From: Candidatus Nomurabacteria bacterium
GTDB taxonomy: Bacteria; Patescibacteriota; Minisyncoccia; Phycocordibacterales; UBA918
DNA: 64,000 nt
Assembly: GCA_020632155.1 (NCBI GenBank)
Contig: JACKGE010000001.1
Location: 381,302 to 445,301 of the forward strand
Direction of reading: 5' to 3'
Numbering within the stretch: the first letter of the stretch is position 1; each line of letters begins with the position of its first letter. This document shows positions 26,011 to 56,142 of this stretch, one piece after another. The notes beneath the pieces were generated by a model. That model was given only the letters and a program-made list of their open reading frames with translations. It did not search any database and had not been told where the DNA came from. The position numbers were made by a program, and so were the translations under genes.

Positions 26011-28553
26011 TTGGCCGCACCGAACTCCACGGCATCACTGTTGTTGACGGTCGTTCTACCAGTGTTGATGGCCCTCACTTCACTGTTAGTGATGATGCCA
26101 ACCTGCCCCTGTTTGACATCTCGTCTTCCTTTGGCCAAACCTTTATCAACAGCAACAAGAATGCCCGCTTCTTTGACAGTGTCTACCTTGCTGACGAGCT
26201 CCAAGACGTCACTCAGTCGGCCGGTTCTGCTGGCTACGTGCTTCAATCTACCGGTACTAGTACGCTGTGGGTCGCAACAAGCAGTCTCGGAATCAGCGCT
26301 GGTGGCGGTGGTACGGTGAGTAGCGTTGCAGCGAGTGTCCCGACTGGTTGGACAGTGACTGGTAGTCCGATAACTGCTACAGGAACTCTTGCGTTTGACT
26401 ACGACACCGGCTACGGCGCCGTCCTTATAGCCAGTACCACTGACTGGCAAACCGCCTACAGTTGGGGCAACCATGCCGCTGCCGGCTATCTCGACGGTAC
26501 TGACATCGGTTCAACCGTCCAAGGCTACAATGCCAACACCACCATCCTCGGTTCTACCATTAATGCTAACGAACTAGCGAGCGAAGACTTCGGTGACTTC
26601 ACCTGCAATGGCACAACGTGCTCCCTTGATGCTGACACCGTGGCGGCCTCTGAAATGGCCGACAGTGATCACGGCTTCTTCTCATACAGCTCCGGAGTAG
26701 CATCTCTCGACACCGATGGCCTCACTAGTGCCAACCTGTCTGGTGCGCTCACTAATGAGACTGGTACTGGAAGTGTCGTGTTCTCAAGTTCACCGACTCT
26801 CACCACACCAGATCTTGGTACTCCAAGTGCAATTACTCTAACCAATGCTACCGGCCTCCCGCTCTCAACTGGCGTCACTGGCACGCTTGATATCGCCAAC
26901 GGTGGTCTTGGCATCTCATACACCGATCCAAATGCTGATCGCATTCTCTTCTGGGATGATAGTGCTGGTAGATTTTGCCAACCTGACAGCTTCAACCGGA
27001 CTCACCCTTACTGGCACTAACCTCACTGTCCGTAGTGCCTCAGAATCTCAGACTGGTATTGCCGAGTTTGCTACTCAAACCGAGGTCAATACCGGAACCG
27101 ATACTACGCGTGTGGTACGCGCCAATACCCTTGGTGCGTGGCCTGGCACCACCAACCTCACCACCCTCGGCACCATCACTACCGGAACGTGGAACGGCAC
27201 CGCCATCGGTGACGCCTACCTCACCAAGACTGGTGACTGGACCGGCACCTTCGACGGACAGGAGGGGAGTTACTACCTAGACCTCGCCAATGCTACGGGT
27301 GATACTGACGACCTCACCGAAGGCAGCACCAACCTCTTCTCTGATGGACCACCTCTGGCTCTGATATTTGCAGTGGAAGTGTTGGAATTGGTATTGACGA
27401 GTCCATTCAGCACAACCACTAAAACGCTCACCGTTGATGCTGGAGGGGTTCATCTGGCAATATGCCGGCCTTGAACTACGTGGTGGCAAATGGTAATTTG
27501 CTGGAAATAGTGAAATTGGTTTTTTGCTGGAGAGGACGCTTACGAGCACTCGCGTATGAGCTGATGTAACGGGTGGCGGGATCTTGGTTGGAAATCGGCC
27601 TTTATACCAACCAGAATTCTGCAGCGAATCTCACAGAACGAATGCGCGTTAACTATCTTGGTAACGTCGGCATCCGGGACGACAGGTCCGTGAAGCTTGA
27701 CGTGGTTGGGAATATCCGTGCATATACTACTACAAGTAATAACGGCCTTATTATTTCATCAGGAAGTACCAATACTGGTGCTCGAAACTGGTTCGTTGGC
27801 GCAAACACTCCTGTGGCTTATGGTGATTTTGCTCTGCAGCAGTCAAATGCACTGGGTGGTGATCCACGCACTGCTGGTACGGCACGGTTGTATACGCTCC
27901 TCCGGGTCGGCATCACCACCACTCCATCAGAACTCCTGCATGCGCCTGGCGATGCCCGTATAGAAGGACGCTTTATGACAGCACTTCACCAAGCGGTGCT
28001 CTCGGCTACGTCCTCCAAACTACCGGCACGGAGAGTACCATGGTGGCGATCAAGTCTTGGCCGTGAACACCAACACAATTAACTGTGAAAGCGGGTAGAG
28101 GTTATATATTTGATGGCAGCAACAGTGGCACGCTCTCTTCTGGAACTTGGCACTTTGATTCACTTACAGATGATACAGTTAGATGATACATATAACACCC
28201 TCGGCATATCTCGACAGTACTGTAGCAGATGGCGCTCTTTCAATGCCAACGTCTCACTCTACTCGGCAGCGCTATAGACCCACTGGATCTTGCAGACGAT
28301 GATTTCGGAGACTTTTCTTGCTCCAGTGGTATCTCTGTACCTTTGATAACGACACCATCGCTCCAGCCGAGATGGCTGATGCTGACACGGCTTCTTCTCA
28401 TACAGCTGGAGGGTAGCTTCGCTTGACAGGTGGCCTTACCAGTGCAAACCTCGCATCTGCCCTCACTAATGAAACTGGTGGCAGTGCGGTGTTTCAGCTT
28501 CGCCAACTCTCACTACCTAACCTCCAGTACACCAAGCGCTGTCACATTAACTA
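25697..28553 (+). pseudogene. frameshift-riddled, degenerate paralogous segments of the giant surface-protein gene (or assembly errors in a collapsed repeat)
   Basis: Homolog-guided comparison shows 1-nt indels at ~25696 (tggcctggc -> tggctggc), ~26962 (aacttt -> agatttt), and ~27345-27474 (premature stop). Fragments 27573..28082 and 28229..28768 still encode recognisable modules (GNVGI, DLADDDFGDFSCSSG, TNATGLPISTG) but in shifting frames. Confidence 0.5.
25746..26275 (+). repeat. ~530-bp intragenic direct repeat, copy 2
   Basis: See copy 1. Only scattered synonymous or conservative differences between the two copies. Confidence 0.8.
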
Positions 28554-31500
28554 ATGCAACTGGTCTCCCAATTAGCACTGGCCTTAGTGGTGCTGGAACC
28601 GGCGTCCTTACTGCTCTTGGTGTTAACATCAGGTTCCTTTGTGGTCAATGGTGGCGCTCTTGGCACCCCATCCTCAGGTACTCTCTGCAACGACTGGCTT
28701 ACCACTCTCTACCGGGTGACTGGCACACTTGGTATTGCCAATGGCGGTCTTGGTGTCTCATACACTGATCCAAATGCAGACCGTATCTTATTCTGGGACG
28801 ATAGTGCTGGCAACTTCGCTAACCTTGTCGCCTCAACTGGTCTTACTTTGTCGGGCACCAACCTAACGGTCCGAGCTGCTTCAGAATCACAAACTGGTAT
28901 TGCTCCGCAAAGGAGTTTGCTACTCAAACCGAGGTCAATACCGGAACCGATACTACGCGTGTGGTACGCGCCAATACCCCTCGGTGCGTGGCTGGTCACC
29001 AACCTCACCACCCTCGGCACCATCACTACCGGAACGTGGAACGGCACCGCCATCGGTGACGCCTACCTCACCAAGACTGGTGACTGGACCGGCACCTTCG
29101 ACGGACAGGAGGGGAGTTACTACCTAGACCTCGCCAATGCTACGGGTGATACTGACGACCTCACCGAAGGCACAACCAACCTCTTCTCCCAGTGGACCAC
29201 CTCCGGCTCTGATATCTACTACAACAGTGGAAATGTTGGTATTGGGACGACGACGCCGGACCAGCCCCTGGTCGTCCTTGGTGGTACTGCAAGTACAGCA
29301 CCAAACCTACTCACTATCCAGTCAAATGAAGGTGGTAGCACCAGTCCGGGCGATGTGTACGCCGGTATTCAGTTTGGTGTATATGGGGGAGAGAATGGCA
29401 GTGGTGCACAGCCAGTAACCGCCTTTATCAAAGCGGTTGATACGAGAGCTGGCGCTACTTCAAATGAAGACGGGGGACTTTCTTTTGGAACCCTGAATTC
29501 CACCGGCGGTCCGACAGAACGGATGATTATTACTCACGATGGTAAGGTCGGTATTGGCACCTCTGATCCGTCTGACACTCTCAATGTTGCTGGTAACACC
29601 GACATTACCGGTGAAGTGCAGATTGATGGAACATTGTCTATCGGTGGCGTCGCGCCGAACAGTTCACGCAGTCTCTATATAAATGACTCATTCACTGATG
29701 ATGCAGCTACGTACGGCATATATAACCTAACCAACTTCGGCTCCTCCATAAGTGGAAACCGTACACCATATAGTAGTTTCAATAAACTTACGGTCGACGG
29801 GTATACCTTAAATTCTAATACTCTTAACCCAGCGGGTGTGTATGGCGAAGTCGAGATATTAAATGGCAATGAAGATGTTGGTAGCGCCCGTGGATTATAC
29901 TCGGTTGTAGATAACCAAAATACCAGTGGTACATTGGACGCTAGTTACGCCATTGATGTACTTACCCAAACTTCGGCTAATTCTACTACTACCAACGCGT
30001 ATGCGTTTAGAAGCAATTTAACCAATAACGGCTACATCGGTAACTACTACGGTATTTATCTCACGGATGTAGTAGAGGGAGGGCAGGGCAATGCCTACGC
30101 GTTCTGGACCAATGAAGGAGACGTTGTTCTTGACGGCGACGGCGACGGTGTTGCAGGTGGTACCGATGTTGGCACCAACCTTTTCTTTGGCGAAAGTCAA
30201 GATGCAGCAATTTGGTATGACGGCGCCGATTTTAACATTGATCCGCAAATCGTTGGTTCAGGTGATCTGCTCATACCAAACGGCAACGTTGGTATTGGTG
30301 ACCCGACACCTTCATCTAAACTTGATGTGTACGAAAATAGTACCAATGCCGCTGGTGCGAGTGGACTTACACTAGAACAAGCTGGTACTGGTGATGTAAA
30401 CATTTCATTCCTACTGACGGGTACACGACGTTGGAATGTTGGTGTCGACAACAGTGATAGTGATAGGTTCAAAATCCTCTCCGACAATAGCAATGATTAC
30501 AGTGGTTCAGGACTGGTGATTAACACGAATGGTAATGTCGGCATCGGCGCAGCCGACCCCTCTGTGGCTAAACTGCAAACGTACGTGAATGATACAAGCT
30601 CGTACCAAAATCTCATTGAGCAGGACAGTACTGGTGACTCGGCACTCTCGTTCCTTTTAACAGGCACTAAACAATGGATCGTTGGTATTGATAATAGCGA
30701 CGGTGACAAGTTCAAGATCGGCGAAGGAGGTGCTGTTGATTCTGAAACCGCACTAACCATTGATACGTCTAGTAATGTTGGTATTGGTATCACTGACCCA
30801 AGCACCTACTTACAAATTACCCGAGCATCAAACGCGTGGCCAGCGACTTCGGGAACCACTCAAAGTACTGGCCAATATATGCGCCTCGGAAACAATACTG
30901 GTTCTGTTCTTGATATCGGTGGCAACAGTACCTCAGGCCAGTGGCTACAATCCACAAACGCCACCAATCTTGCCACCAATTATCCGCTACTCCTAAATCC
31001 AAATGGTGGCAACGTCGGTATCGGTGATTCCTCTCCAGCCAGTCTATTCACCGTCGGTAACGGCGACCTGTTCCAAGTAAACTCCTCTGGTGACATTATC
31101 ACGCAGTCTGTTGGTGTCGATGCACTGGAGAGCGAAGACTTCGGTGACTTCACTTGCAATGGCACGACGTGTACTCTCGACGCTACCTATCTGACGGGCA
31201 ACCAAACCATCACCCTTTCTGGAGACGTCTCTGGTTCTGGTGCTACCAGCATCAGCACCACTCTGGCGGCTGACACCGTTGATTATTCAAATATCGATTA
31301 CTCAGCAGTCATTGGTAGCGACCCATCATTTGGAGCTAGTGAGACCTTCTTTGGCACTACCGGTGTCATCTTTGAAGGATCGTCTGCTGATACATTTGAA
31401 GGGCTCCTTACCACCACCAATATTACCGGTTCAGATAAGACATGGACATTGCCAAATACCACCGGCACCATCGCGCTCCTAACGAGTGCTATGACCGGTA

Positions 31501-45255: not shown

Positions 45256-45300
45256 CACCACGTATCAGTTTGGTACACCAAGGTGCTTTATACTAAGAGT

Positions 45301-46197
45301 ATGTTTTATCTCAGTGATAACGACGTTCATGAGTTGGAGCAAAAGGCGAATGATATTCGTGAGAGCACTATTGAGATGCTTATTGCTGCTGGCAGCGGTC
45401 ATACTGCTGGGCCGCTTGGTATGGCTGACATTTTTGCGCTCTTATACTTTCGTGTCCTTAAACATGATGCTAAAAATCCTGACTGGGAGGAACGTGACCG
45501 CTTCATTTTAAGTAACGGCCACATTTGTCCGGGCCTCTATGCAACCTTGGCGCACGCTGGCTACTTTCCTGAAGAGGAACTTTTGACGCTACGAAAATTT
45601 GGCTCACGTCTTCAAGGGCACCCACATAAGGGAACACTACCGGGTATTGAATCCAGCTCAGGTCCCTTAGGGAGCGGCCTCTCGCAGGCGGTTGGTATGG
45701 CGCTTGCTCTTAGGATGGATAATCCATACACATCACAGTACGTGTACTGTATGACTGGTGATGGAGAGATCAATGAGGGACAGATATGGGAAGCGGCCAT
45801 GTTGGCCGGCAAGGAGGAACTTCATAACCTTATCGTCATTATTGACCGTAATGCCATTCAGATTGATGGCTATACCAAAGACGTCATGCCACTGGAGCCA
45901 CTTCGCGAAAAGTGGGAGGCGTTTAACTTTGATGTGCAGGAGGTTGACGCTCACAATATTCGCATGATGCACGACGCAATCGGAAAAGCACAAGCGGTAT
46001 ATGGGCAGCCGTCGGTTATCATTGCGCACTCTATTGCCTCAAAAGGTATTGATGTGTTTGAACGTGATTTTAGGTGGCACGGCAATCCGCCCGGTAAAGG
46101 TCCTGAGGACCGTGTGCCTAAGGGTGAACAAGTTGAGACGGCACTCAGGAAACTCCGTACCCTTGGTGGTGCTATTGAAGCTAGTGATATCGACTGA
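45301..46197 (+). CDS. transketolase, N-terminal (TPP-binding PP-domain) subunit of a split enzyme
   Basis: GSGHTAGPLGMADIFALLY...RDRFILSNGHICPGLYATLAHAGYF...GSGLSQAVGMALA. Ends at ~300 aa with a stop. The C-terminal half is a separate gene at 46616. Confidence 0.85.
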   Translation: MFYLSDNDVHELEQKANDIRESTIEMLIAAGSGHTAGPLGMADIFALLYFRVLKHDAKNPDWEERDRFILSNGHICPGLYATLAHAGYFPEEELLTLRKFGSRLQGHPHKGTLPGIESSSGPLGSGLSQAVGMALALRMDNPYTSQYVYCMTGDGEINEGQIWEAAMLAGKEELHNLIVIIDRNAIQIDGYTKDVMPLEPLREKWEAFNFDVQEVDAHNIRMMHDAIGKAQAVYGQPSVIIAHSIASKGIDVFERDFRWHGNPPGKGPEDRVPKGEQVETALRKLRTLGGAIEASDID

Positions 46198-46236
46198 GTG
46201 TAGGTTACAGGTGTTAGGTTATAGTGTATTAGGAAG

Positions 46237-46596
46237 ATGAATACAATCAAATCATTTAAGGATCTAATTGTTTGGCAGAAATCTATCATTCTAGTTAAAG
46301 AAGTTTACACTTTATTGCAGAAGTTGCCGACAGATGAAAGGTTCGGACTTATTAGTCAGATGAGACGTTCTGCTGTGTCGATACCCTCGAATATTGCAGA
46401 AGGTTCCAAGCGTGGTACGAGTAAGGACTATCTTCAATTTTTACGCATAGCAAATGGATCATGTGCAGAATTAGAAACACAGTTAGTAATTACAAAGGAG
46501 CTTTATGGTGTTACAGTTGGTGAAGTAGACGAATTACTTATTGAAGTACAGAAAATGTTACAAAGTATTATTAAGACGCTCAGTACTGAAACCTAA
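46237..46596 (+). CDS. four-helix-bundle protein of the 23S rRNA intervening-sequence (IVS) / Avd-like family
   Basis: DLIVWQKSIILVKEVYTLLQKLPTDERFGLISQMRRSAVSIPSNIAEGSKRGTSKDYLQFLRIANGSCAELETQLVI matches the family consensus (VWQKA..L...IY.LT..FP..E.FGL.SQ.RRAAVSIPSNIAEG..R.S.KD...FL.IA.GS..EL.TQL.IA) almost position-for-position. Confidence 0.85.
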   Translation: MNTIKSFKDLIVWQKSIILVKEVYTLLQKLPTDERFGLISQMRRSAVSIPSNIAEGSKRGTSKDYLQFLRIANGSCAELETQLVITKELYGVTVGEVDELLIEVQKMLQSIIKTLSTET

Positions 46597-46615
46597 ATAC
46601 TTTAACCTATAACCT

Positions 46616-47605
46616 ATGCGTTTAGCAGATCATTTAGATAGAAATATATTCACTGATAACGTTGAACAAGTTCCGAATCGCAATGGCTATGGCGAGGGTC
46701 TTAAAGAGGCGGGAGAGAAAGATGTACGGGTAGTAGCACTTTCCGCTGATCTTACCGGCTCAACGAAGACCAACCTATTCGCCGATGCATTTCCGGAGCG
46801 GTTTGTGCAAGTGGGTATTGCTGAGCAAAATATGGCGTCGGTGGCATCGGGTATGGCAGCAGTGGGGAAGATACCCTTTATTGCTTCATACGCCATGTTT
46901 TCACCCGGACGAAGTTGGGAACAAGTGCGTACTACAATTGCGTACAACAACAGCAATGTAAAGGTTATCGGGGCCCACTCTGGTGTCTCGGTAGGACCTG
47001 ACGGCGCTACCCACCAAGCGGTGGAAGACATGGCCATTATGCGAGTGATTCCAAACATGGTGGTCATTGCACCGTGTGATGTGCATGAGGCACGTAAAGC
47101 CACACTGTGGGCTGCGGAGTATGAAGGTCCGGTATACATTCGTATCGCCCGTGAAAATTCTCCGGTAGTGACCACGGCAGACAGCCCGTTTGATTACGGT
47201 AAAGCGCAACTACTTGCTGAAGGTGTTGATAGTGCTGAGAATAAAGTCGGAATTATCACCACTGGCATATTGGCTCACAACGCCCTTATGGCGGCTAAAG
47301 AGCTAAACGAAGCTGGTATTAGCACTTCTGTTCTTCATGTACCCTTTATAAAACCACTTGATGAAGAAGCTGTGCTTGCCTTAGCAAAAAATAACGACTT
47401 TATTGTCACTCTTGAGGAACACCAAGTGGCCGGAGGTTTGGGTAGCGCAGTAGCCGAGTATCTTTCTGAGACTCATCCAACTAAGATCATTCGCCTTGGT
47501 GTACACGACCAGTTTGGTCAGTCTGGAACACCGGAAGAACTACTTGCCCACTATGGTATGGACACCAAAACGCTACTAGATACAGTAAGAAAAAATTTGA
47601 ATTAA
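46616..47605 (+). CDS. transketolase, C-terminal (pyrimidine-binding plus C-terminal domain) subunit
   Basis: FVQVGIAEQNMASVASGMAAVGKIPFIASYAMFS...GAHSGVSVGPDGATHQAVEDMAIMRVIPNMVVIAPCDVHEARKA. Confidence 0.9.
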   Translation: MRLADHLDRNIFTDNVEQVPNRNGYGEGLKEAGEKDVRVVALSADLTGSTKTNLFADAFPERFVQVGIAEQNMASVASGMAAVGKIPFIASYAMFSPGRSWEQVRTTIAYNNSNVKVIGAHSGVSVGPDGATHQAVEDMAIMRVIPNMVVIAPCDVHEARKATLWAAEYEGPVYIRIARENSPVVTTADSPFDYGKAQLLAEGVDSAENKVGIITTGILAHNALMAAKELNEAGISTSVLHVPFIKPLDEEAVLALAKNNDFIVTLEEHQVAGGLGSAVAEYLSETHPTKIIRLGVHDQFGQSGTPEELLAHYGMDTKTLLDTVRKNLN

Positions 47606-47618
47606 GGTACGTGCTACT

Positions 47619-48095
47619 ATGTTGAATATGCAAAGAGGCTTCACTCTCATTGAACTCCTTATTGTGATAACTATCATTGGCATTCTTTCTAGCGTGGTCT
47701 TAGTGAGTCTCAGTAGTGCGCGCGAGAAGAGTCGCGATGCGGCTCGGGTGTCCCAAATAAAAGAGGTTAAGACTGCTTTGGAGGTGTACCGTTCAGACAA
47801 TGGCGGGTACATCAATATCTGCAGTGGATCACCGGGCAACCTCCCGGCACGCGCGGCGGCGCTTGCGCCTAACTACATGAGCCGCTTGCCAACTGATCCT
47901 TTACATACCGGCAATGACGATTATTTGTACTGTGGTAGTGCCAACGTAAATGGTAGTGGTCCAGGGTATGGTATTCGAATTCGCTTTGAAGATACTGACC
48001 GGCCTGGGACCAATGCCAATGGGTACTGTAAAACGGGAGTAAATATCAGCACGGGATGGTGGGGAACTGGCGTGCCGGTCTGTGAAGGATTGTAA
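47619..48095 (+). CDS. type IV pilin-like protein (prepilin-type N-terminal cleavage/methylation domain)
   Basis: MLNMQRG-FTLIELLIVITIIGILSSVVLVSLSSAREKSRDAAR: class III signal peptide with G/F cleavage site and an E at +5. Confidence 0.8.
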   Translation: MLNMQRGFTLIELLIVITIIGILSSVVLVSLSSAREKSRDAARVSQIKEVKTALEVYRSDNGGYINICSGSPGNLPARAAALAPNYMSRLPTDPLHTGNDDYLYCGSANVNGSGPGYGIRIRFEDTDRPGTNANGYCKTGVNISTGWWGTGVPVCEGL

Positions 48096-48098
48096 AAT

Positions 48099-48632
48099 AT
48101 GCTTGAGGTACATAAAAAATCAAACGGCTTCACCCTCATTGAACTTCTCGTGGTGATTGCGATCATTGGTGTTTTGGCCAGTGTGGTCTTAGTGAGTCTC
48201 AGTAGTGCGCGCGAGAAGAGTCGCGATGCGGCTCGTAAGGCAGCTTTACAAGAGGTTGCAAAGGCCCTTGAGTTATATCATTTGGATAATGGGACGTATT
48301 CTATTTTAGGAGCAGGGGCCGGTGGAAATGGCAACGGTTGGTTTTCATACGTTGGTGGCGCATACCCAAAATCAGTTGCACAGCAGTTAAAGGATGATGG
48401 ATATCTCGGAGGAGTAGTTGTAGATCCATCAGGTGCAAAACTTGGGAATCAAAGTGGTCGCAGTGGATATATGATCATTGCTAATGACAGTAACTTCACT
48501 CTCTGGGCCAACTTGGAGAGCCCTTCTACAGAGGACACTGCTACATTGAACACCTGCACTTTTAATAATTATGATAACTATCACAGTAGTTACCCAGCAA
48601 CGGCTAGGATGAATTACTGTATCAGCAACTAA
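48099..48632 (+). CDS. type IV pilin-like protein, paralog 2
   Basis: KKSNG-FTLIELLVVIAIIGVLASVVLVSLSSAREKSRDAARKA. The N-terminal coding DNA is nearly identical to paralog 3. Confidence 0.8.
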   Translation: MLEVHKKSNGFTLIELLVVIAIIGVLASVVLVSLSSAREKSRDAARKAALQEVAKALELYHLDNGTYSILGAGAGGNGNGWFSYVGGAYPKSVAQQLKDDGYLGGVVVDPSGAKLGNQSGRSGYMIIANDSNFTLWANLESPSTEDTATLNTCTFNNYDNYHSSYPATARMNYCISN

Positions 48633-49747: not shown

Positions 49748-50275
49748 GTGATGTTTCAGTCGAAAGAGCTCAACCAAGGCTTCACTCTCATTGAACTTCT
49801 CGTGGTGATCGCGATCATTGGTGTTTTGGCCAGTGTGGTCTTAGTGAGTCTCAGTAGTGCGCGCGAGAAGAGTCGCGATGCGGCTCGTATGGCACAACTT
49901 AAAGAAATAGAGAAAGCCCTTAATTTATTTTATACTGAGAACGGCCGCTACCCCTCAGAAGGTGCACCAGATAATGCTAATACTGGTGGTACCGGCCGGA
50001 TTTGCCGATCTTGTACTGGTGGTATTAATACCATTCTTGGTCAATATATGGGTGCTGTTCCAGAAGATCCGTCGCACGATGGCTCAAACTATTACTACTA
50101 TTATGATGGCAGACAGACCTGCGGTGGTAATCCCGTACAAGCAGTAGTGGCTGCTCACAACATGGAAAATCCTAACAATAGTAATACTAATGACACCAAA
50201 TGCACCAGTTGGGGTGGTGAGGGAGGAATTGGACAGAATGACTCATACAATGTTGTTTTAGGTGATGCCTATTAA
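49748..50275 (+). CDS. type IV pilin-like protein, paralog 3
   Basis: SKELNQG-FTLIELLVVIAIIGVLASVVLVSLSSAREKSRDAARMA. Confidence 0.8.
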   Translation: MMFQSKELNQGFTLIELLVVIAIIGVLASVVLVSLSSAREKSRDAARMAQLKEIEKALNLFYTENGRYPSEGAPDNANTGGTGRICRSCTGGINTILGQYMGAVPEDPSHDGSNYYYYYDGRQTCGGNPVQAVVAAHNMENPNNSNTNDTKCTSWGGEGGIGQNDSYNVVLGDAY

Positions 50276-55888: not shown

Positions 55889-55924
55889 ACCCTAACCACC
55901 TTCACTAAGGTAGTGGACACCTTT

Positions 55925-55995
55925 AAAATCTGAGAGGTGAGTCAGTCTGGGTGACTGATGAACGAGAGGACTCGTGACGACCCACGGTTTACAAA
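55925..55995 (-). pseudogene. degenerate partial copy of the 3' half of tRNA-Thr plus its downstream flank
   Basis: 55902..55995 and 56027..56115 are tandem ~125-bp repeats sharing CTAACCACCTTCACTAA...CTGAGAG...GACGACCCACGGTTTACAAA(A)CC. Copy 1 lacks the tRNA 5' half and has a diverged T-arm. Confidence 0.45.
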
Positions 55996-56069
55996 CCTTG
56001 AGACAGTTTCCCAAACTGTTTCAACTCTAACCACCTTCACTAATGTGGCAGATACGTTTAAACCCTGAG

Positions 56070-56142
56070 AGCCACCTGTCAGACTCGAACTGACGACCCA
56101 CGGTTTACAAAACCGTTGCTCTACCAACTGAGCTAAGGTGGC
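56070..56142 (-). tRNA. tRNA-Thr (anticodon TGT)
   Basis: Reverse complement GCCACCTTAGCTCAGTTGGTAGAGCAACGGTTTTGTAAACCGTGGGTCGTCAGTTCGAGTCTGACAGGTGGCT folds as a 73-nt cloverleaf. 7-bp acceptor, D-arm GCTC/GAGC, anticodon stem ACGGT/ACCGT with loop TTTGTAA, T-arm GTCAG-TTCGAGT-CTGAC. No encoded CCA. Confidence 0.85.

Follow-up and report, generated by a model that had tools for sequence, protein, structure and literature searches.

A four-helix-bundle gene between inverted heptamer arrays at a split transketolase junction, with the build of an ORF-bearing 23S rRNA intervening sequence

Closest described systems

The function and the origin of the 23S rRNA intervening sequence (IVS) protein family have been open questions since the early 1990s. 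The IVS of Coxiella measures 428 to 444 nt and has a 28-bp stem of terminal repeats, with the S23p ORF lying in sense orientation in the loop (PMC4990558). Tandem heptamers (GACAGAT) are found upstream of this ORF, and excision by RNase III has been shown in vitro (PMC4990558). The selfish-looking 418-nt cassette described here, which lies exactly between tkt-N and tkt-C, the genes that together make up a split transketolase in a Candidatus Kaiserbacteria (CPR) genome, resembles the 23S rRNA IVSs (Coxiella burnetii S23p; Leptospira) in its protein family (PF05635/S23p), in its size, in the terminal inverted repeats predicted to form a stem of ∼25 to 30 bp around a sense ORF, in the heptamers immediately upstream of that ORF, and in a patchy occurrence across the phylogeny that suggests horizontal spread (PMC4990558). 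However, it is located at the mRNA intergenic junction of two protein genes and not in helix 45 or helix 25 of 23S rRNA. Furthermore, its ORF appears to be under purifying selection (dN/dS of ∼0.1), whereas that of Coxiella has been reported as decaying and probably untranslated, and processing by RNase III, demonstrated for IVSs, is presumed for the tkt cassette. Shared family and anatomy, rather than a caught intermediate, suggest the link between the tkt cassette and the rRNA IVSs.

A second relative is bAvd, from the diversity-generating retroelements (DGRs), which is pentameric (PMC10053308). It is a distantly related four-helix bundle of similar length, and the structures 2GSC and 2RLD, matched by the cassette protein, were deposited with five chains each, like pentameric bAvd. 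The tkt cassette differs from the bAvd systems in that no RT was found among the scanned ORFs of the window (the whole 64-kb stretch of DNA that was analyzed) and no TR/VR near the gene, in that its protein is near neutral and stays below the cut-offs of the Avd HMMs, and in the inverted heptamer arrays around the gene, which are not a DGR feature.

For their part, the Correia elements of Neisseria have a repeat stem that, in RNA, is a known target of RNase III. The Correia/NEMIS elements are, like the cassette, small inserts between genes, bounded by inverted repeats and co-transcribed, as the cassette presumably is. Nevertheless, they are geneless, have conserved terminal repeats, duplicate a TA target and reach hundreds of copies per genome, whereas the tkt cassette carries a conserved gene, has arms that differ between copies, shows no visible duplication, and is present in one copy in 64 kb. 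Similarly, integron cassettes are small promoterless ORFs read from an upstream host promoter, hence their orientation bias, and they have foldable imperfect inverted repeats; but they carry only one attC, located at one end, depend on the IntI integrase and accumulate at attI, whereas the tkt-type cassettes have two arms flanking the ORF, lack an integrase, and are scattered over operon junctions.

Tandem 7-nt units have also been described in the heptamer arrays of Beggiatoaceae, cyanobacteria and Bacteroidetes (TAACTGA) and of Geobacter, where they bear stops, read forward and lie directly before start codons, as in the cassette (PMC4679880, PMC2700814). According to their descriptions, however, these arrays are direct, with no complementary partner array or enclosed four-helix-bundle gene, and the papers on Beggiatoaceae and Geobacter make no mention of four-helix or S23 proteins (PMC4679880, PMC2700814). 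A full-text search of the literature returned no description of non-rRNA four-helix-bundle genes with inverted heptamer arrays, which is weak evidence given that most subscription journals lay outside the search.

The cassette at the tkt junction

The cassette lies in a pentose-phosphate operon, and its immediate neighbors are genes for GAPDH, RpiB, Rpe, Tkt, and pilin-like proteins. The original prediction had put the end of tkt-N at 46197 and the start of tkt-C at 46616, with a gap of 418 bp between them (46198..46615), and these coordinates were borne out by the ORFs and their domain matches. The features, all of them on the + strand, are the following.

tkt-N, 45283..46197, + strand: upstream host gene, encoding the transketolase N-terminal, TPP-binding half (PF00456, Transketolase_N, 194.7 bits); TGA stop at 46195-46197.
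Whole cassette, 46198..46615, + strand: 418 nt comprising both arms and the ORF; GC content of 35.4%; empty sites in ∼70 of 80 relatives.
5' arm, 46201..46235, + strand: five units of ∼7 nt (TAGGTTA, CAGGTGT, TAGGTTA, TAGTGTA, TTAGGAA); lag-7 autocorrelation of 0.53 (p = 0.006).
Four-helix-bundle gene (PF05635 23S_rRNA_IVP / TIGR02436), 46237..46596, + strand: 119 aa, in the same direction as the operon; TAA stop at 46594-46596.
3' arm, 46590..46617, + strand: four units of ∼7 nt (AACCTAA, ATACTTT, AACCTAT, AACCTAT); lag-7 autocorrelation of 0.62 (p = 0.001).
tkt-C, 46616..47605, + strand: downstream host gene, encoding the pyrimidine-binding and C-terminal half (PF02779, Transket_pyr, 143.6 bits; PF02780, Transketolase_C, 96.1 bits).

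The 5' arm, which starts 3 nt downstream of the tkt-N stop, is G/T-rich, with one C and four TAG triplets, and its inner end overlaps an AGGAAG purine run located directly before the ATG of the four-helix-bundle gene. The units of the 3' arm complement those of the 5' arm, overlap the TAA stop of the ORF and extend into the tkt-C ATG (46616-46618); the 20 nt preceding this ATG are made up entirely of the 3' arm, and no Shine-Dalgarno-like sequence was found in them. The inverted repeat formed by TAGGTTACAGGTGTTAGGTTATAGTGTATTAGG (46201-46233) and CCTAAATACTTTAACCTATAACCTA (46592-46616) exceeds what is expected by chance. The arm-arm duplex reached −34.6 kcal/mol (z = −3.8 versus shuffles), the ORF was enclosed by the stem in both the MFE and the centroid folds, and TAGGTTATAGG, at one mismatch or fewer, occurred three times in 64 kb, every time at the cassette locus (0.73 expected). 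The fold energy of the region as a whole was unexceptional (z = −0.28), the long-range arm stem alone being notable. Within the family this stem is mid-range: one unpaired heptamer interrupts it, and it falls below the threshold in a strict Watson-Crick-only alignment.

Imperfect inverted repeats flanking the gene had been predicted, and they are supported by the duplex z score, the lag-7 periodicity, the fold, and the homologous arms found elsewhere. Beyond that prediction, it was found that the arms are heptamer arrays and that the whole build equals that of an ORF-bearing 23S rRNA IVS. The terminal inverted repeats coincide exactly with the two ends of the insert, and among strain-level variants the arms were identical, with no variation in heptamer copy number. 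A promoter and terminator scan gave no promoter-like or terminator-like site within the cassette (46198..46615).

Judged by the curated cut-offs, the 119-aa product clearly belongs to the PF05635/TIGR02436 family (23S rRNA IVS protein, S23p). It scored 121.9 bits against PF05635 (cut-off, 33.8), with residues 8 to 109 on model positions 1 to 102 of 106, and 119.1 bits against TIGR02436 (cut-off, 24). Its start codon is slightly uncertain, a near-identical NCBI copy (GCA_020428955.1) being annotated 9 nt further in, with 116 aa. The matches in the PDB, 2GSC (XCC0516; E = 1.4e-20) and 2RLD (E = 6e-5), indicate that it resembles solved four-helix-bundle structures of the pentamer type. The dN/dS values of 0.09 to 0.20 obtained against relatives point to purifying selection on the protein, and the GC content of the ORF was 35.6%, versus 48% in its surroundings. 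This helical protein is the sole product of the cassette, lacks histidine, and has a pI of 7.8. No nuclease, recombinase, or other catalytic motif was recognizable in it, so movement would probably need host or other factors. PADLOC returned no match, and membership of the gene in a defense system is thus unsupported.

Orthologues of tkt-N were found in 80 genomes (76 to 84% identity). In ∼70 of these the gap between tkt-N and tkt-C ranged from −2 to ∼20 nt (1 to 7 nt once the start codons were corrected), and the cassette is therefore an insertion relative to an ancestral arrangement in which both genes abut, as had been foreseen, and not an ancestral member of the operon. In agreement with this, its GC content (35%) is ∼13 to 15 points lower than that of the flanks (48 to 50%). 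The tkt junction is empty in L029, a neighbor of the studied genome, and filled in a closer relative (L167) and in a genome of a different clade (L041), whose nearest relatives (L043 and L055, 89% identical) are without the four-helix-bundle gene. A protein with 70% identity is encoded at the PrgI/TraC junction of L168, and further relatives were found at a YqeY/holin-like junction (67%) and at a GAPDH/RpiB junction (65%). The arms in L167, L168, and L041 are homologous to those of the tkt cassette (TAGGTGTTAGGTTGTAGGTTATAG in L168).

Comparison of filled junctions (the window, L167, and L041) with empty ones (L029, L008, L043, and others) gave no evident target-site duplication, although a duplication of 2 to 3 nt could hide at the ∼78% identity of the nearest empty site. 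The search for further copies of the gene or of the arm motif came out negative elsewhere in the 64-kb window, and ∼550 kb of related genomes contained one further cassette copy only, at the same junction. The cassette is present in each of the nine contigs on which exactly this tkt-N or this tkt-C is encoded, no empty allele of the same population being found among them; thus, nothing points to current movement, and the cassette looks fixed in the population. Given these negative results for a target-site duplication, for a second copy within 64 kb, and for an empty allele, recent mobility at the tkt locus is unproven, and the mobility of the cassette is something that we infer. Accordingly, from the predicted "small autonomous insertion cassette," the insertion stands, by virtue of the empty sites, the low GC content, and the relatives at other junctions, whereas the autonomy does not, given a sole product without nuclease or recombinase, a single copy, and no visible duplication.

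Arms and orientation across the family

The family survey comprised 73 related loci, from which 105 ordinary genes served as a control, and 18 distinct copies from viral contigs. The tkt cassette belongs to a large set whose members occupy numerous distinct gene junctions and also occur on viral contigs, and many of the 18 distinct viral copies tested share the inverted-array build. The arms pair with each other despite the differences in unit sequence between elements (GTGAAGC, TAGGCAT, TTTAGGG, CAGTGAA, and others), the 3' arm of each element complementing its own 5' arm. The mean arm duplex in the 73 loci was −33.1 kcal/mol, whereas the two controls, mismatched pairs and reversed flanks, averaged −18.9 and −21.7, respectively (p = 1e-11), and z values below −3 were obtained for 48 of the 73 loci and for 1% of the 105 ordinary genes. 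The lag-7 autocorrelation was 0.47 and 0.44 in the two arms, versus ∼0.27 at other lags.

A median of 6 nt separates the preceding stop from the 5' arm, a median of 10 nt lies between the 3' arm and the start that follows, and the arms measure ∼30 nt. The 5' arms contain an excess of stop triplets (z = 6), all three frames being closed in 49 of 73 loci, and the GC content was below that of the host in 68 of 73. An interpretation of the 5' heptamers as arrays of Shine-Dalgarno-like cores was rejected, SD-type 4-mers not being enriched (z = −1.4). An Rfam scan placed in rRNA none of 20 sampled relatives, which were those with the least clear coding neighbors.

The cassettes are almost always in sense orientation relative to the surrounding operon, with 39 sense and 1 antisense among those internal to directons (p = 7e-11). 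The polarity of the arms was also biased, G-rich at the 5' side and C-rich at the 3' side in 47 elements and opposite in 4. A comparison of G:U with A:C mismatches, as a sign of selection specific to the sense RNA, gave 17 isolated arm mismatches of the G:U type and 24 of the A:C type (p = 0.35; wobble-blind alignment). Since no asymmetry was observed, arm pairing could be as important in DNA (through a hairpin, a cruciform, or repeats at the termini) as in RNA.

Readings of the cassette

We consider it probable that the cassette is a promoterless insertion like an ORF-bearing 23S rRNA IVS, lodged in the 1- to 7-nt stop/start junction of the translationally coupled tkt-N and tkt-C genes. It would be transcribed only within the RNA of the host operon, in which the arms would form the ∼25- to 30-bp stem and leave the ORF looped out. 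Such a stem would restore a spacing of only a few nucleotides between the tkt-N stop and the tkt-C start, and the insertion might be tolerated for that reason. The stem would also be a likely substrate for RNase III, as in rRNA IVSs, and cutting would release an RNA containing the ORF; the scan of window ORFs did not reveal a gene for RNase III. For their part, the stop-rich heptamers, with their 7-nt period, would present a stop in every frame, and incoming translation would end before the ORF. The stem may thus act at the RNA level, either as a target of RNase III or by keeping translation of the two genes coupled.

The main alternative, which we regard as rather unlikely, is a non-autonomous, MITE-like DNA transposon, in which the arms would be terminal inverted repeats or DNA hairpins for a transposase encoded elsewhere (e.g., a hairpin-recognizing enzyme of the Y1/IS200 type), the gene would be cargo, and the RNA stem would be a by-product. 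An insert bounded exactly by terminal inverted repeats, related cassettes at different junctions in different genomes, and a GC content that is low relative to the host would all be in agreement with it, as would the lack of asymmetry between G:U and A:C mismatches, which a constraint at the DNA level predicts. A weak Y1_Tnp gene is also present ∼1 kb from a related cassette in L174/L175. However, it is the protein that is conserved across the family and not the arm sequences, whereas a transposase acting in trans normally keeps its binding sites constant. In addition, the preference for sense orientation (39:1) and the constant polarity of the arms, G-rich on one side and C-rich on the other, point to a constraint on the transcript and not on double-stranded DNA. 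Filled and empty sites show no visible target-site duplication, no transposase was found among the scanned window ORFs, and the one copy in 64 kb is at odds with the multiple near-identical copies by which such elements are recognized.

An ancestral gene of the operon, inherited vertically and serving the host (e.g., as a regulator of the pentose-phosphate operon), lost in most relatives and with the repeats as a local regulatory hairpin, is largely refuted and very improbable. Its presence at the same junction in L167 and L041, its fixation in the population, and the strong purifying selection on the ORF would suit such a gene, but many independent and base-precise losses would be needed, given the closest relatives of L041 without the gene and the empty junction of L029. 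The GC content 13 to 15 points under that of the flanks also stands against it, as do the same arm subfamily with a 70% identical ORF at the unrelated PrgI/TraC junction and the recurrence of this arm design around family members from viral contigs and from dozens of other, unrelated junctions.

Least probable of all is an orphan or remote DGR component, that is, an Avd serving an RT and a template repeat elsewhere in the genome: the distant similarity to Avd (PF22296, 22.8 bits; NF033474, 23.1 bits; PHROG 3206, "Avd protein of DGR," 26 bits) and the finding that, of all Pfam families, PF05635 occurs most often near DGR RTs (PMC10053308) are outweighed by Avd-specific scores far under their cut-offs (40 bits for PF22296 and 80 for NF033474) alongside PF05635 and TIGR02436 scores far over theirs, by the near-neutral protein, by the lack of any PDB match to bAvd at E ≤ 0.01, and by the lack of any RT family in the gene tables obtained for the related loci L167 to L175 and L201 to L206. 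In the window itself, a Pfam scan of 30 further ORFs (all those of at least 220 aa except the giant repetitive ORFs located at 23 to 38 kb) contained no RT, and a whole-window repeat search gave no TR/VR-like pair near the gene, the repeats found corresponding to large surface-protein and pilin-like genes; the predicted absence of an RT or template repeat nearby was thus upheld, and a DGR reading was rejected. Similarly, from the predicted "IVS/Avd-family protein," the IVS part was sustained by PF05635 and TIGR02436, and the Avd label proved too specific.

Returning to the IVS-like insertion, a wider generalization can be put forward, although we hold it to be speculative and somewhat doubtful. 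PF05635 genes in inverted heptamer arrays might constitute, in bacteria, a widespread mobile class of promoterless, "operon-riding" cassettes, abundant in CPR/Patescibacteria and on viral contigs, of which the rRNA IVSs would be the copies that landed in rRNA. The arms would hide the insertion from the host at the RNA level (by looping out, RNase III excision, or stop/start proximity), and the pentamer-type protein would serve spread or retention with no known transposase, perhaps rewriting both arms in concert. The non-rRNA copies keep the anatomy of an IVS (closing stem, heptamer arrays, and sense orientation) and lie base-precisely between coupled genes, which would make the IVSs just one of the places where a more general type of cassette has landed. 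A specific gene family would, in turn, become tied to the intergenic heptamer arrays that lack an explanation in several phyla. Natural pairs of filled and empty sites, such as those of the tkt junction, offer a test ground for the role of the stem in RNA processing, translational coupling, and mobility. The relatives of the protein number more than 7,999, and most of these many thousands bear no annotation beyond "four helix bundle protein"; among the named matches listed, the majority were Patescibacteria proteins with that name.

Insertion of the cassette at a coupled stop/start junction

The two halves of the transketolase gene are separated by 418 nt, a gap that had been predicted and that the ORF coordinates bear out. 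It holds an ORF for a four-helix-bundle (4HB) protein between two arms, as follows.

45283..46197, + strand: tkt-N (Transketolase_N, 194.7 bits)
46201-46233, + strand: 5' arm, TAGGTTACAGGTGTTAGGTTATAGTGTATTAGG
46237..46596, + strand: 4HB ORF, 119 aa (PF05635 and TIGR02436)
46592-46616, + strand: 3' arm, CCTAAATACTTTAACCTATAACCTA
46616..47605, + strand: tkt-C (Transket_pyr and Transketolase_C domains)

The match of the 119-aa ORF to PF05635 was unambiguous (121.9 bits; cut-off, 33.8), and TIGR02436 gave 119.1 bits (cut-off, 24). The GC content of the cassette was 35.4%, versus 48 to 50% in the flanks. The source organism is a Candidatus Kaiserbacteria: P0004, a relative 99% identical to the cassette protein, carries this name, and the exact window tkt proteins were also found in GCA_020428955.1.

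For comparison, 80 tkt-N loci (76 to 84% protein identity) were retrieved from reference genomes, one per species, of Kaiserbacteria, Paceibacteria, and allied groups. tkt-N and tkt-C were adjacent in about 70 of the 80, with gaps of −2 to ∼20 nt. Once start codons were corrected, the stop-to-ATG distance in these loci was 1 to 7 nt, as is typical of translationally coupled genes. The identical junction was filled in L167, a relative closer to the window (identities of 84% for tkt-N, 81% for tkt-C, and 74% for the cassette protein), with arms made of xAGGTTx units as in the window. It was also filled in L041, a locus from a Tara MAG, whose cassette protein is 65% identical and whose arms share AGGTGTTAG..TAGTGTA with those of the window. 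A neighbour-joining tree built from concatenated Tkt placed L041 and the window in different clades. The nearest relatives of L041, namely, L043 and L055 (each 89% identical), both lack the 4HB gene and have a 22-nt spacer and an unrelated 186-nt insert at the junction, respectively, while L029, the neighbour of the window in the tree, has an empty site. Thus, the placement of L041 and its relatives implies either repeated entry of related cassettes at the tkt junction or several clean losses.

Elsewhere, the closest relatives of the 4HB gene were wedged between genes, as at the tkt junction. A 70% identical relative sits at a PrgI/TraC-like junction, with arms (TAGGTGTTAGGTTGTAGGTTATAG) clearly homologous to those of the window, and relatives of 67% and 65% identity sit at YqeY/holin-like and GAPDH/RpiB junctions, respectively. 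Since relatives occur at other junctions, one of them with homologous arms, ORF and arms travel together and are inherited together. The empty tkt junctions, the low GC content, and the related cassettes at other junctions rule out an ancestral operon member and support the predicted insertion cassette: it is an insertion at a coupled stop/start junction.

The term "autonomous" in the original prediction was not supported. The window holds a single copy of the cassette, and a target duplication is not evident. Arms were identical among strain-level variants, and all nine contigs with the exact window tkt proteins carry the cassette (9/9). Together, these four observations count against current activity at this locus.

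Inverted heptamer arms in the window and across the family

The imperfect inverted repeat proposed for the flanks is real, as supported by motif counts, duplex energy, and folds. Its core, TAGGTTATAGG, occurred three times in 64 kb with at most one mismatch, always at the cassette locus (0.73 expected), and the flank duplex reached −34.6 kcal/mol (z = −3.8 versus shuffles). Both the MFE and the centroid folds of 46190-46625 contained an arm-arm stem enclosing the whole ORF; the total fold energy of this segment was ordinary (z = −0.28). In register, the 5' arm reads TAGGTTA CAGGTGT TAGGTTA TAGTGTA TTAGGAA and the 3' arm reads AACCTAA ATACTTT AACCTAT AACCTAT, with lag-7 autocorrelations of 0.53 (P = 0.006) and 0.62 (P = 0.001), respectively. 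The 20 nt 5' of the tkt-C ATG are entirely arm, without Shine-Dalgarno-like sequence, and a scan of the cassette gave no promoter-like or terminator-like site.

The family sample comprised 80 metagenomic loci encoding relatives at 46 to 61% identity, of which the 73 with both flanks present were analysed. Flank-flank duplexes averaged −33.1 kcal/mol, compared with −18.9 for mismatched upstream/downstream pairs and −21.7 for the reversed own flank (Wilcoxon P = 1e-11). Values of z below −3 against own shuffles were reached in 48 of the 73 loci, versus 1% of 105 ordinary genes taken from those loci (median z, −0.06). Lag-7 autocorrelation was 0.47 upstream and 0.44 downstream, compared with ∼0.27 at other lags, 0.25 in the ORF interior, and 0.28 in control genes, and lag 7 was the peak in 52 of the 73 5' arms. 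The unit varies between elements (GTGAAGC, TAGGCAT, GTGACGA, TTTAGGG, CAGTGAA, TAGGGTA, and others), and in each element the 3' arm nonetheless complements its own 5' arm, which amounts to covariation at the scale of the whole arm. The conserved property is arm pairing, not any binding sequence. The ORF was lower in GC than its surroundings in 68 of the 73 loci (mean difference, 8 points). The arm build recurs in many of 18 distinct copies examined on viral contigs, with pairs such as GAGTAGGGAGTAGG/CCTACTCCCTACTCC and (TCAACGT)n/(TGAACGT)n.

Relation to the host transcript and to known elements

Cassettes are tightly wedged between their neighbours, with median spacers of 50 nt upstream of the ATG and 38 nt past the stop. 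A Watson-Crick-only arm-alignment threshold was passed by 32 of 39 '++' loci. In these, the median distance was 6 nt between the upstream stop and the 5' arm and 10 nt between the 3' arm and the start that follows, with arms of ∼30 nt and whole inserts of ∼468 nt. The cassettes lie in sense orientation: where both neighbours are on one strand, 39 were sense and 1 was antisense (P = 7e-11). The 5' arm was G rich and the 3' arm C rich in 47 elements and the reverse in 4 (29 versus 1 among strong stems). Sense-strand stop triplets were enriched in 5' arms (4.6 versus 3.6 per 50 nt; z = 6), which close all three frames in 49 of 73 loci, a 7-nt period shifting any triplet through all three; Shine-Dalgarno-like 4-mers showed no enrichment there. 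These features depend on orientation and speak for a cassette that exploits host transcription, with arms moulded by the sense RNA and by its translation. One result pointed the opposite way: isolated arm mismatches showed no G:U bias (17 G:U versus 24 A:C; P = 0.35), and the pairing is therefore not assignable to selection in RNA over DNA.

The cassette would be transcribed solely within the operon RNA, where pairing of the arms may loop out the ORF and return the tkt-N stop (3 nt upstream of the arm) and the tkt-C ATG (on the final base of the arm) to close proximity. A ribosome that reaches the end of tkt-N would open the outer stem and free the start of tkt-C, so that coupling would be retained. 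By analogy with rRNA intervening sequences (IVSs), the stem of ∼25 to 30 bp would be a plausible RNase III substrate.

The IVS of Coxiella burnetii (428 to 444 nt, in helix 45 of 23S rRNA) has terminal inverted repeats forming a 28-bp stem and a sense S23p (PF05635) ORF with tandem heptamers (GACAGAT) just 5' of it, and is cut out by RNase III in vitro; Leptospira IVSs are described as similar (PMC4990558). All anatomical points agree with the window cassette, and the host site alone differs; the cassette is thus IVS-like, yet the rRNA location that defines 23S IVSs is missing, and it is therefore not classed as a 23S IVS. The 4HB gene is under purifying selection: dN/dS versus relatives was 0.09 to 0.20, with synonymous sites near saturation, and 20 columns were invariant in a 40-sequence alignment, indicating that the protein product matters, in contrast to the decaying Coxiella ORF. 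The protein is near neutral (pI 7.8), with zero histidine and no recognisable catalytic motif. Intergenic heptamer arrays are also known as TAACTGA repeats in Beggiatoaceae, cyanobacteria, and Bacteroidetes (PMC4679880) and in Geobacter elements (PMC2700814), but these are described as direct, with no link to the 4HB family, whereas the window arms are inverted around a 4HB gene. The tkt locus is one case of a general architecture, IVS-type 4HB cassettes with inverted heptamer arms at operon junctions; in the literature searched, of incomplete coverage, we found no description of it or of such arms around 4HB genes outside rRNA.

A component of a diversity-generating retroelement was rejected, and with it the label "Avd": no TR/VR-like repeat pair lies near the gene, in line with the prediction of no template repeat or reverse transcriptase nearby, and the Avd models PF22296 (22.8 bits) and NF033474 (23.1 bits) remained well under their cut-offs of 40 and 80, respectively. 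No reverse transcriptase was found by Pfam in 30 further window ORFs (all those of ≥220 aa apart from the giant, repeat-rich ORFs at 23-38 kb), and no such family is listed in the gene tables obtained for related loci L167-L175 and L201-L206. The PHROG "Avd" match was weak (26 bits), and PADLOC gave no match. The closest solved structures were 2GSC (E = 1.4e-20) and 2RLD, each deposited with five chains; the bAvd structure gave no match at E ≤ 0.01.

Other inserts and repeats

Between window positions 46150-46660 and L198, L199, and L200, all six SNPs (511 aligned bases) fell within the 4HB ORF, five being non-synonymous, with arms and tkt flanks invariant; these strain-level numbers are small and part may be metagenome assembly noise.

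The insert in L055 (3247-3432), from a different genome, has near-perfect inverted ends (GGGTTCATTCACAATAAAAC/GTTTTATTTTGAATTAACCC) and encloses an ORF of ∼50 aa that is not a 4HB gene; small inserts closed by a stem seem to be drawn to the tkt-N/tkt-C junction. The 45-nt tkt spacer of L052 (3901-3945) consists of the heptamers ACTACAG ACTACTA ACTACTA ACTAAAC and abuts the tkt-C ATG in the manner of a lone 3' arm, and that of L043 (3898-3919; GTGGAACTAATTTTCATATTTT) resembles the end of the L041 3' arm. Both may be footprints of lost cassettes. Low-GC tkt spacers of 133 to 201 nt without a 4HB gene occur in L021 (3916-4057), L042 (3898-4030), L059 (2423-2556), and L077 (3895-4095), the last with a strong hairpin; L021 and L042 have a possible short ORF in common (MANFFF/MTNFFV...). 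In L007 (3913-4400), the closest tkt-N relative (84%), an RpiB-like gene follows tkt-N, and tkt-C is at another place and on the other strand, the operon being rearranged. A weak Y1 transposase (IS200-like) match ∼1 kb upstream of the GAPDH/RpiB cassette in L174 (2111-2785) and L175 (292-966) could be a coincidence or a candidate trans-acting hairpin-recognising enzyme.

In the window, a direct repeat of ∼280 nt (27064-27341 and 28913-29188; 99 to 100% identity, 1849 nt apart) lies within very large ORFs rich in repeats (23-38 kb; one has 2231 aa). Further repeat families of 70 to 89% identity occur, as do Gly-rich stretches of GGCGGCGG; these probably represent domain repeats in surface proteins. 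Three pilin-like genes shortly downstream of tkt-C (47619-48095, 48099-48632, and 49748-50275) have in common a 167-nt N-terminal repeat (76 to 86% identity); in related loci, the first of the three is annotated with an N_methyl domain. Finally, a 48-nt direct repeat (55889-55936 and 56024-56071; 81% identity, 135 nt apart) lies shortly upstream of a glycosyltransferase-like ORF.
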